64,000 nucleotides of DNA from NCBI GenBank assembly GCA_964016885.1, contig OZ024740.1, positions 395,064,001-395,128,000 on the forward strand. Reading direction: 5' to 3'. The notes below the pieces were generated by a model. It saw only the letters and a list, made by a program, of their open reading frames with translations, searched no databases and was not told the origin of the DNA. Origin of the DNA: Eledone cirrhosa. Taxonomy: Eukaryota. The first letter of the stretch is position 1, and each line of letters starts with the position of its first letter. The position numbers and the translations under genes are program-made. Positions 38,402 through 64,000 of the stretch are shown in pieces.

Positions 38402-38489
38402 CATATCTGACGAGATGTCAAAAAAAGAATCGGGCCTCGTCACCTTGATTGTACCCTCAACTGATCAATATTGAAACTATTGTAATATG
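38402..38489 (+). ncRNA. Type I hammerhead ribozyme with long stem II insert
   Basis: CATAT-CTGACGA-gatgt...atatt-GAAA-CTATTG-TA^-ATATG. Stem I is 5 bp and cleavage is predicted after 38484. The inverted copy retains the palindromic ACAATTGT. Confidence 0.65.
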
Positions 38490-38558
38490 CCAATAAAGTT
38501 TGTACATATGCTGCAACACTGACTTTGATTCTCTCACTCTCTCTCTCTCTCTCTCTTA

Positions 38559-56813: not shown

Positions 56814-57696
56814 CTAAGTTGGGTCAAAAACTCTATTGGCGAAGGAATTAGCCCTTCGATGTTGACAGCTAATGGTTACCTCCGTTCTATCGTTAATCGG
56901 TAGAGGTCGTGATAGAGTTATGTAATATGCTTCCGTAACACAGAGATCACAAGATTTTCTTCGTCCATTGAACGGTTGGGCCCTAGCCACGATATCCCAT
57001 TTTAGTGAGTGTTGAACGTTGTTTAATTTAAGGTTTTTAATGAGCCTAGCTAGCGATGTCGAACATCTGTTGCTAGGGTCTCGGAAGGAAAAAGAGTGCA
57101 CGTTATAGCGTACCTTAAAAGGGTTAGAGGTAGACCCGATATAATAGCTGGTATTCGAAGCAGTCTCAACCGTACACCTATAGACTATGTTGGGTGTCAG
57201 GCAGTGTCCATTTAATGGACATGCAATGGGGTAACGGCAGTTGCAGTTGCTTCTGCGGTTAGTGAGAGTAGGGTTGTTTAACCTAAGCGGTCAGTGTTAG
57301 AAGGATTAGATGGGGGATGTGTGCTACTAGAGTAATTATTGGTGTAGTGGCGTGGTGTATTTGATAGGGGTGGTGGTATCACGGTGTGGGAGTTATACTG
57401 TCTTAGCTTATGATGGTTACTGAACGCGATGTGGCTAGCTAGGTTAGGTGTTGTGGAGAATGATATTTTAATGTTATTTTTATTAAAGAGTTTGTAATAT
57501 CTATGGTTGGGGGTAAGTGTTTGGATAGGATAGAGAAGTGTTTGGGGATATTAGTGGCTAGATTAGATGAGAATGGTGGGTTGAGCCAGGTGATATTTCT
57601 AGGTCTATTCCTTCTAGGGGTTCTAGTGGAGTTGGTAGGGGCCTTCCTAGGGTTATTATTACCTGGAGATTTGTTATTTGTCATCCCATTTCTCAT
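56814..57696 (-). pseudogene. PLE GIY-YIG endonuclease, frameshifted
   Basis: NITWLNPPFSSNLATNI, YKLFNKNNIKISFS, CNCRYPIACPLNGHCLTPNIVYRC...YYIGSTSNPFKVRYNVHSFSF...LKWDIV...CDLCVTE...INDRTE...CQH. Confidence 0.85.
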
Positions 57697-61700: not shown

Positions 61701-61859
61701 TTAAAAACTTAAAACCACAACTGAATACTAACCCATACAATCACTAATACTCTTTTATTCCTAATTAAACCATTTTTCAACTGTGAACAATTTGTCAGCA
61801 TTTTCTATTCCGTTTACCAATATATGTATATATATATATTTATTAAAATAACAGATTAA

Positions 61860-61910
61860 AGTTTAAGCAAAGAATCGCTGCTTTCACCCTTAACGGGATC
61901 TTCTAAAACT
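61860..61910 (-). ncRNA. Hammerhead-shaped motif with atypical core
   Basis: Minus strand AGTTT-TAGAAGA-t-CCC-gttaa-GGG-t-GAAA-GCA...TGC-TT-AAACT. All three stems form, but core positions 3-4 deviate. Confidence 0.4.
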
Positions 61911-62633
61911 AACAAAGTCAATCTGTAAACACAGAAGTGGATATTTCAAAAAACGTTGCAACCGGAGGAAGACAGGAAGACGATACTTTGGTTCGTGGAA
62001 ACGTTCGCTGGCAAAGAACGGGAAAAAAATAATGTAATACGTCATTAATAGGTGCGGTGAAAAACAATTATGCGCAAAGACAGAACCACGTTTATGGTAT
62101 AAAAGAAGTCGTAGACTAATGTTCTCTTAGGTGGTTCATAGAGACGTTGTCTGGCAATGAACGGAAAAAACGAAGATAATACGTCATATGTGGAGCGTGG
62201 AGAACAATTGCATGCAAAGACAAACTCACGTAAATGGTATAGCTGAAGTCGTAGACTAAAATTCTCACTAGGAAACCGAATGAATCTCTGCTTCAGAGTT
62301 AAGAATAAAGTAAATATAATACAAATCGAGCCCTCTTTGGATTTTAGTCTTCAAATTTATTATTATTACTATATATGTATATATATATGTATATATATAT
62401 GTATATATATATGTATATATATATGTATATATATATGTATATATATATATGTATATATATATATAATAGGATATGTGTTCCTTCACGCATAAGGCGCTAA
62501 GGGACGCATGTATTGTCCAACCAAATGCCAATGTGGTTCAATGGCAGGTTAATAAATTAACGAGCCAGAACATATATAAACAAGGTTTAGCAAATAATGA
62601 AAAAGTTTCAAAATAAATTTTAAAAAATTGACT

Positions 62634-62975
62634 TTACCTACTATAGTTACCTTTACCGATCGGTTTCGAATCCCAAAAATAAACGGAGACCATACGGCCT
62701 TCGTTGCAAAGAAAGATTCTCGTCAGAAGGTTCTTTTCATTCGAAGAATATAAAATTCTTGAATTTAAATTACGAACTAGCGCTATCCAAAACTGTTCCT
62801 GAGATGAGAGTGAATGAAGTGGAATCAATTTTTTCAAGGGCCGAAGTAAAGATAGAGGCAGAGGGAGGTAGGTCAAACCGGCCGCAACTATCACTAGCAG
62901 CAGTCGGAACAACCCAATTTGTCTCTCAACAATAGCGGAGAGTAGTAATAATAGGATATGTGTTCCTTCACGCAT
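62634..62975 (-). CDS. Hypothetical 113-aa ORF in the repeat unit (identical copy at 63119-63460); coding status unproven
   Basis: ATG-initiated, on the same strand as the ribozyme, overlapping it and crossing the cleavage site. Hydrophobic N-terminal half; no family recognised. Confidence 0.25.
   Translation of the reverse strand: MREGTHILLLLLSAIVERQIGLFRLLLVIVAAGLTYLPLPLSLLRPLKKLIPLHSLSSQEQFWIALVRNLNSRILYSSNEKNLLTRIFLCNEGRMVSVYFWDSKPIGKGNYSR
62649..62731 (-). ncRNA. Type I hammerhead ribozyme, copy 1
   Basis: Minus strand ACCTT-CTGACGA-GAATCTT...GGGATTC-GAAA-CCGATCGG-TA^-AAGGT. Canonical core, 5-bp stem I, extended stem II, palindromic stem III; cut at 62654/62653. Confidence 0.9.
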
Positions 62976-63133
62976 AAGGCGCTAAGGGACGCATGTATTG
63001 TCCAACCAAATGCCAATGTGGTTCAATGGCAGGTTAATAAATTAACGAGCCAGAACATATATAAACAAGGTTTAGCAAATAATGAAAAAGTTTCAAAATA
63101 AATTTTAAAAAATTGACTTTACCTACTATAGTT

Positions 63134-63216
63134 ACCTTTACCGATCGGTTTCGAATCCCAAAAATAAACGGAGACCATACGGCCTTCGTTGCAAAGAAAG
63201 ATTCTCGTCAGAAGGT
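63134..63216 (-). ncRNA. Type I hammerhead ribozyme, copy 2
   Basis: Identical to copy 1, 485 bp away; cut at 63139/63138. Confidence 0.9.
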
Positions 63217-63775
63217 TCTTTTCATTCGAAGAATATAAAATTCTTGAATTTAAATTACGAACTAGCGCTATCCAAAACTGTTCCTGAGATGAGAGTGAAT
63301 GAAGTGGAATCAATTTTTTCAAGGGCCGAAGTAAAGATAGAGGCAGAGGGAGGTAGGTCAAACCGGCCGCAACTATCACTAGCAGCAGTCGGAACAACCC
63401 AATTTGTCTCTCAACAATAGCGGAGAGTAGTAATAATAGGATATGTGTTCCTTCACGCATAAGGCGCTAAGGGACGCATGTATTGTCCAACCAAATGCCA
63501 ATGTGGTTCAATGGCAGGTTAATAAATTAACGAGCCAGAACATATATAAACAAGGTTTAGCAAATAATGAAAAAGTTTCAAAATAAATTTTAAAAAATTG
63601 ACTTTACCTACTATAGTTACCTATATATATATGTATATATATATGTGTATATATATATGTATATATATGTGTATATATATATGTATATATATATATATAT
63701 GTATATATATATTTATATATATATATATGTATATATATATGTATATATATATGTATATATATATATATGTATATA

Positions 63776-63807
<32 letters not shown>

Positions 63808-64000
63808 CATATATATATACATATATATATATATACATATATAGTAATAATAATAAATTTGAAGACTAAAATCCTGGATCCTCAGAACCGTCCAGTCGAG
63901 AGATTCCCACACCATTATTCTTCTCTTCTCTACTTTTGCCCGACCACACCTTCAATACTGTTGTCCACTGTGGTCTCCTTACACGAAACAAAGTATCATG

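Follow-up and report, generated by a model that had tools for sequence, protein, structure and literature searches.

Animal non-LTR retrozymes are non-coding tandem repeats of low GC content in which each unit carries one type I hammerhead ribozyme (HHR) and which share their genomes with Penelope-like elements (PLEs). Tandem cDNA synthesis on a circular template and mobilisation by PLEs have been proposed for them (Cervera & de la Pena 2020, PMC7229834; Li, Clavereau & Pollet 2026, bioRxiv 10.64898/2026.07.22.740005), the link with PLEs resting, in the Xenopus retrozymes, on sequence homology (bioRxiv 10.64898/2026.07.22.740005). PLEs of the Hydra clade target (TA)n, form tandem and inverted 5'-truncated structures, bear a tail at one end and contain an HHR (Craig et al. 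2021, PMC8557442), and antisense self-priming has been proposed for PLE inversions (PMC3846280). In vitro, the Poseidon PLE of Anolis starts at two internal sites downstream of its HHR, with both DNA strands cut and extended and a dimer predicted, and neither requires HHR cleavage nor uses different start sites on the two strands (Frangieh et al. 2024, PMC11167929). Both the way in which animal retrozymes re-enter the genome and the origin of the tandem and inverted structures and the tails of PLEs are treated as open questions in PMC7229834, in PMC8557442 and in the 2026 preprint.

The locus described here lies in a 64,000-nt stretch of the Eledone cirrhosa genome (hereafter, the window) and consists of a single minus-strand arm of a 485-nt unit (38% GC), an arm being a run of units in a single orientation, with 5' and 3' taken from the HHR strand. 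When units are numbered from the first base 3' of the predicted hammerhead cut (q1, window position 63138, minus strand), the array at 62463..63622 reads q2-485, q1-485 and q1-191. Tandem Repeats Finder reported 62463-63622 with a period of 485, 2.4 copies and 100% match, bounded by TA tracts (62370-62465 and 63622-63843), and comparison at a shift of 485 revealed zero mismatches within the array. These results bear out an earlier, sequence-only reading of the locus as about 2.4 identical head-to-tail units between (TA)n; of the span that it gave, 62464..63622, the end at 63622 stands and the other is really 62463 (q191). The target tracts extend over 63623..63843 on the 5' side and 62370..62462 on the 3' side and carry the same (TA)5TG 12-mer; a target-site duplication would be masked by the TA repeats. 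With its 5' end at q2, the array begins one base inside the predicted cleavage product, as had been noticed. Its 3' end uses the second of two start sites (q188-194; 62463..62470, minus strand), and the major reverse-transcription start site, q82 (UUUAUAUAU; 62572..62580, minus strand, repeated at 63057 and 63542), which has microhomology to the TA tract, is not an end in this copy.

With a type I HHR descriptor, two matches were obtained on the minus strand of the array (cleavage nucleotides 63139 and 62654) and none in 30 shuffled 64-kb windows. In hammerhead 1 (63134..63216, minus strand), stem I (63216-63212 with 63138-63134) is followed by CUGACGA (63211-63205), stem II (63204-63198 with 63159-63153) encloses a conserved hairpin and is followed by GAA, stem III occupies 63149-63140, and the cut is predicted between 63139 and 63138. 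Hammerhead 2 (62649..62731, minus strand) is identical, and its cut is predicted to fall between 62654 and 62653. Stems I-III consist throughout of standard base pairs (15 in all), and the claim of one type I HHR on the minus strand of each full unit was thus confirmed by descriptor and pairing. The Rfam/Infernal check proposed in the sequence-only reading returned no hammerhead match at E<=10 for the array; Rfam likewise reported no hammerhead family on two copies with a short loop II or on PLE pseudo-LTR regions, and its miRNA matches were rejected as TA-repeat noise. In the proposed folding check, stems I and II formed unforced in the circular minimum-energy fold, with the full HHR costing 7 kcal/mol to impose; the isolated HHR fold was no more stable than shuffles (z -1.1).

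Across 39 distinct family sequences (36 of 40 stretches picked by regular expression and 3 older copies), 97.5% of cells pair; the choice of stretches partly fixed stems I and III, and the relatedness of the sequences inflates the test. G-U to G-C changes occur in stem II and the loop-II hairpin, and 2 pairs are altered on both sides. Within the unit, variant rates are lowest in the HHR region (~0.01 versus 0.05-0.12 in mid-unit), part of which was fixed by ascertainment. Together, the low variant rate, the pairing and the changes in paired bases indicate that the predicted HHR is maintained by selection. The further suggestion that a palindromic stem III allows dimeric HHRs fared less well: it is weak because stem III comprises only 3 bp and a tetraloop and is not palindromic in older subfamilies (753 matches), and an obligate dimeric HHR was rejected for the latter reason. 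Elsewhere in the window, the descriptor had one further match, at 38407; this hammerhead-like motif of type I (38402-38490, plus strand) has no sequence relationship to the 485-nt unit and lies in an old dispersed repeat of imperfect inverted structure with 75-82% identity to its relatives.

To assess the distribution of the unit, we searched the genome (3.0 Gb, 1,796 contigs, one assembly). The exact 27-mer spanning the HHR cut matched 1,196 times, which extrapolates to ~560 loci, and the unit itself found 1,874 candidate places, many of the best 40, which were scored, being 100% identical on different chromosomes. Identical arrays of differing length, each with its own flanks, occur on at least seven chromosomes, and the older subfamilies, which contribute 753 further matches, are also 483-486-nt tandems. 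The claim that the copy is very young is supported. For the analysis of loci, the best 40 of the 1,874 candidates were combined with 40 loci required to have an exact junction match (40 of 45 further loci among the first 100 matches listed), so that all 80 were selected as best matches or for an exact junction and form a biased sample.

At these loci we found no LTR structure and, in or joined to the unit, no ORF with RT and GIY-YIG. The repeat is a dispersed multi-copy family that shares its genome with PLEs; its tandem units each carry a type I HHR (by descriptor and pairing, not by Rfam), with GC below 50%, and the unit size of 485 nt exceeds the 150-450 nt range of 2020, and slightly the 170-400 nt of the retrozymes in PMC7229834, and falls within the 51-972 nt range of 2026. 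With every testable feature of the class present and no ORF between the units of multi-unit loci, the 485-nt repeat appears to be a young, dispersed and new family of stand-alone non-LTR retrozymes, in keeping with the candidate retrozyme first proposed. A 113-codon frame running from q164 into the following unit as far as q17 (window 63460-63122, minus strand) spans the ligation junction; it has an ATG in only 15 of 60 loci, all of the youngest haplotype, and is broken in 26 of 60, and a coding role was rejected for this lack of conservation, the frame probably being due to chance. A strict pattern search of the unit detected no Pol III A or B box; it contains three T runs.

The signature of the family is its 3' end, with two fixed start sites primed in (TA)n. 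At the 80 loci, 109 of the 113 arms adjoin TA at their 3' ends; 72 end at q79-84 and 35 at q183-196 (together 107/113), and the 5' ends are scattered. The two sites, q82 and q~190, lie 109 nt apart, at the 3' edges of AU-rich linkers that are predicted to be unpaired. Single arms make up 51 insertions, 42 of which end at q82, 7 (including the window copy) at q~190 and 2 elsewhere. The 31 others are two-armed and head to head; the arms overlap by 0-9 nt in 27 of them, the remaining 4 have 1-19 extra bases, and in 8 of the 31 each arm exceeds one unit. Of these pairs, 25 combine q82 with q~190, one is 82+82, one is 190+190 and 4 involve another end; thus, 25 of 27 follow a rule of one site per arm (P 2.8e-6). 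The inner ends of paired arms are independent and uniformly spaced (31 pairs, KS P 0.59), which is evidence against fold-back self-priming of the kind proposed in PMC3846280 as the cause of the inversions.

Fixed internal 3' ends, a one-sided tail, an inverted 5'-truncated arm and a microsatellite target are features of PLE-type integration. From ORFs close to retrozyme loci we identified two intact, young and abundant families, PLE-A (3,578-nt unit, 785-aa frame; a first look gave 58,777 candidates, of which the best 124 were scored and had 99-100% identity) and PLE-B (3,258-nt unit, 713-aa frame). Their proteins, 39% identical to each other, contain RWK (RWR in PLE-B), DKT, CxCx5C, CxxC and CxH, with GIY-YIG in C-terminal position, and both families insert into (TA)n; Pfam had no match for PLE-A. 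By these motifs and the TA target, both would belong to the Hydra clade as characterised in section 11 of PMC8557442, with units, at 3.3-3.6 kb, slightly above the usual <3 kb of that account. Each has two 3' end sites, 119 nt apart in PLE-A, with one of each in 7/7 fully seen two-armed copies, and 87 nt apart in PLE-B, with one of each in 21/24, none with the same site twice and 3 unresolved. The 485-nt unit has no sequence similarity to these two Hydra-clade families (best BLAST E 0.06; local scores within those of shuffles), and homology evidence as used for the Xenopus retrozymes in the 2026 preprint is therefore absent here; instead, the link is one of footprint. The footprint common to PLE-A and PLE-B makes PLEs a well-supported candidate for the class of enzyme that mobilises the retrozyme, and the earlier proposal of PLEs as mobilisers is upheld on this basis, without sequence homology. 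The TA region of the window also holds a truncated two-armed PLE-B insertion (61836..62372; 61836-62323 on the minus strand, with its end at the first site, and 62325-62372 on the plus strand, with its end at the second) and, at 63842..63874 (minus strand), a ~30-nt PLE-B 3' end. The latter forms with 62325-62372 an inverted repeat round the array, which was rejected as a pair of transposon TIRs, being two PLE-B 3' ends.

The position of the window copy's 5' end at its own cut had been taken to mark an origin from a self-cleaved or circular RNA. The end is real, but only 4 of the 113 arms stop at q483-q2 once microhomology is allowed for, against 1.3 expected (P 0.044; P 0.14 without the window copy). 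Genome-wide, 12 of 30 loci end in q483-q2 within a 32-nt window (31 loci less the minisatellite L145, offsets read by eye; P 0.003 without the window copy, 0.014 for direct TA joins only). The excess is partly TA microhomology, the TA-like site q479 alone drawing 4-5 ends; it amounts to ~2-3-fold, with a stop rate of ~1-2% per pass. By contrast, 233 of 234 passes across the cut occur without an indel, and there are 1,196 read-through junctions genome-wide. Copy ends, whose clustering at the cut the sequence-only reading had proposed to test, thus show a modest excess there, and it is the 3' ends that are fixed, a feature which that reading had missed; a 5' end at the cut is a genuine but atypical, minority event.

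The evidence for a circular template comes instead from variants private to single loci. Such variants fill all units in 21 cases at 13 loci, versus 118 that are single-copy and 5 that are partial, and 10 of the 11 multi-copy ones visible in both arms are present in both. For example, 345T occurs at 11 places genome-wide, all within the two arms of locus L042, and the 5 places with the 247A context all belong to L063. Genome-unique variants in every unit of both arms imply repeated copying of a single monomer into both, for which two polymerases circling that monomer would be the simplest reading, and we count the seamless 233/234 junctions as support for a closed template. A circular origin is thus probable from the array-wide private variants and not from the 5' end at the cut. 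No clear A-to-G excess, as a signature of RNA editing, was seen among the 21 fixed variants.

The variants also bear on an alternative in which a PLE copies uncut or partly cut multimeric read-through transcripts of parent arrays, and unequal crossover or conversion later lengthens and homogenises the arrays in the DNA, as in the scenario for the birth of satellites given by Li et al. 2026 (bioRxiv 10.64898/2026.07.22.740005). Some arms exceed one unit and then end at the cut, namely the window copy and L040, L095, L106, L135, L138, L139 and L144; linear multimers that were partly cleaved explain these better than a circle does, and the excess of 5' ends near the cut points the same way. Moreover, PLEs themselves form partial tandems, 5 private variants are present in only part of the copies, and one array, L035, is a mosaic. 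However, a genome-unique variant fills 11 units in opposite orientations while adjacent single-unit changes did not spread, the assembly holds no parent of that length carrying 345T or 247A, and 21 private variants are fixed in all copies at their 13 loci. Parents with homogeneous variants could be absent from the single assembly studied, and homogenisation at the DNA level is a possible source of array-wide variants; overall, we regard linear templates as unlikely. The mosaic two-armed array L035 (G000:C4:249627323-249631581) is a candidate source locus, with single-unit variants that are array-wide at L043, L044 and L054. The combination 61C+98C has five places, namely one unit of L035, one of L044 and all 3 full units of L043, and the neighbouring change 460C, on the opposite side of the cut in L035, fills the array of L054 and is missing from L043, a split across the cut that would be expected were monomers bounded by the HHR inherited as units.

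End-to-end template jumping by the RT on one self-cleaved linear monomer, without ligation, would account for the single-template variants equally well, and also for the stops at the cut. Template jumps of the R2 RT usually leave added or lost bases at the junction, whereas 233 of 234 junctions here neither gained nor lost a base. Furthermore, the stop rate at the cut of ~1-2% per pass differs from what is seen at a real RNA end in PLE-B, where 9 of 67 arm ends fall within 5 nt, and we consider such jumping quite improbable. We hold it very unlikely that the unit is no more than a pseudo-LTR belonging to some still unseen full-length PLE and the arrays its truncated by-products: the Xenopus retrozymes do match PLE pseudo-LTRs (bioRxiv 2026.07.22.740005) and our comparison covered two PLE families of the genome, but every multi-unit locus has head-to-tail units without an intervening ORF, 40 of the 51 single arms pass directly into TA on the 5' side and the others share no upstream ORF, and the older subfamilies are likewise tandems. 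The loci thus appear to be stand-alone and not, as the sequence-only reading had allowed for, always terminal repeats of a PLE. Expansion of one unit by the assembler, which the complete identity of units within long TA tracts might suggest, is hardly credible given identical arrays of different lengths with their own flanks on at least seven chromosomes, rule-bound ends and locus-private variants.

We return to the circular template and propose, as the probable mechanism, that a single RNA circle is the template for twin rolling-circle target-primed reverse transcription, performed in trans by a Hydra-clade PLE. Tandem arrays would be transcribed, and the HHR would excise 485-nt monomers, which would be ligated to circles. 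A PLE RT/GIY-YIG complex, the presumed enzyme behind the observed footprint, would cut both strands of (TA)n, and the TA 3' ends would anneal to the two AU-rich, predicted unpaired sites, one end to each. Each RT would then, as the variants suggest, lap the same circle up to ~10 times, displacing earlier cDNA, and the two cDNAs would be joined head to head through the microhomology of 0-9 nt seen in the footprint; extension or retention of only one end would yield a single arm, as in the window copy. The role of the HHR would be to supply an endless template, with insertion ends set by it only in the few copies that stop at the cut. We give even chances to a more specific version, in which one PLE complex grips the 109-nt element on one circle and launches two RTs, one from each end of the cut TA tract and each at its own start site, twin priming on sense RNA is general among PLEs, and the retrozyme, as a circular RNA parasite, recruits the enzyme by shape and not by homology.

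L1 twin priming, in which one RNA is primed from two target ends, produces a head-to-head inversion whose second arm starts where the first ends. On our model the retrozyme resembles L1 in the priming of one RNA by two target ends and in the head-to-head product; unlike in L1, both starts are fixed, the inner ends are independent (KS P 0.59) and both arms may exceed one unit. It shares with Poseidon the two internal starts downstream of the HHR, and the cutting and extension of both strands and the predicted dimer of that element match our model (PMC11167929). The Poseidon start site, however, is not homologous to the target and shows no strand preference, whereas the retrozyme has TA microhomology and one site per arm, and its template appears to be circular, unlike that of Poseidon in vitro (PMC11167929). 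The dispensability of HHR cleavage for Poseidon in vitro, and the lack of a difference in start site between the strands, count against our model. All the features listed above for Hydra-clade PLEs recur in the retrozyme, which differs from them in the lack of an ORF, the up to ~10 laps and a tail of 109 nt versus 30-40 nt (PMC8557442). In the literature consulted, we found no account of this 485-nt family, of the one-site-per-arm rule or, for retrozymes, of strict (TA)n targeting, two internal start sites, head-to-head arrays or single-template variants; the supplements to PMC7229834, to PMC8557442 and to the 2026 preprint, as well as repeat libraries such as Repbase/Dfam, may hold one.

The route has so far only been proposed for such elements, and these copies give unusually direct genomic evidence bearing on it: the family is young enough for single-molecule variants to be followed, and they indicate that both arms repeatedly copy one monomer. 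The parts for an in vitro test are at hand: PLE ORFs that are intact and near-identical in this genome, a short template, two starts already mapped and a simple target. If the more specific version is true, the one-site-per-end rule seen in two autonomous families would put twin priming in the place of antisense self-priming as the explanation of PLE inversions and one-sided tails. An insertion route that begins with a small circular RNA, proceeds by rolling circle and targets microsatellites would also be of interest for genome writing.

Several minor observations concern the retrozyme and the PLE families themselves. The family and its variants are present in additional contigs of organism A, which may include the source sample, and its small shares in two other organisms constitute no evidence. 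The 19-bp minisatellite at L145:2075-3484 derives from the initial 22 bases of the unit. The clustered PLE-B 5' ends (positions 929-933 of the L161 tail) precede a hammerhead-like, non-canonical core and could reflect a transcription start, atypical self-cleavage or a 3' splice site; Rfam had no ribozyme match at this tail, and no canonical HHR was found in PLE-B. Two PLE-B copies (L103:2654-3787 and L129:1-626) lack tail positions 84-820, with GT...AG borders, and appear to be spliced forms beside the usual intron-retaining copies. In PLE-A, L123:5150-5250 contains a minimal hammerhead-like motif that lies upstream of both start sites, by ~115 and 235 nt; with its best stem I, a G would occupy the cleavage position. 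Finally, positions 56838-57511 of the window (minus strand) carry the remnant of a third Hydra-like PLE family, with 39-43% protein identity to PLE-A and PLE-B.
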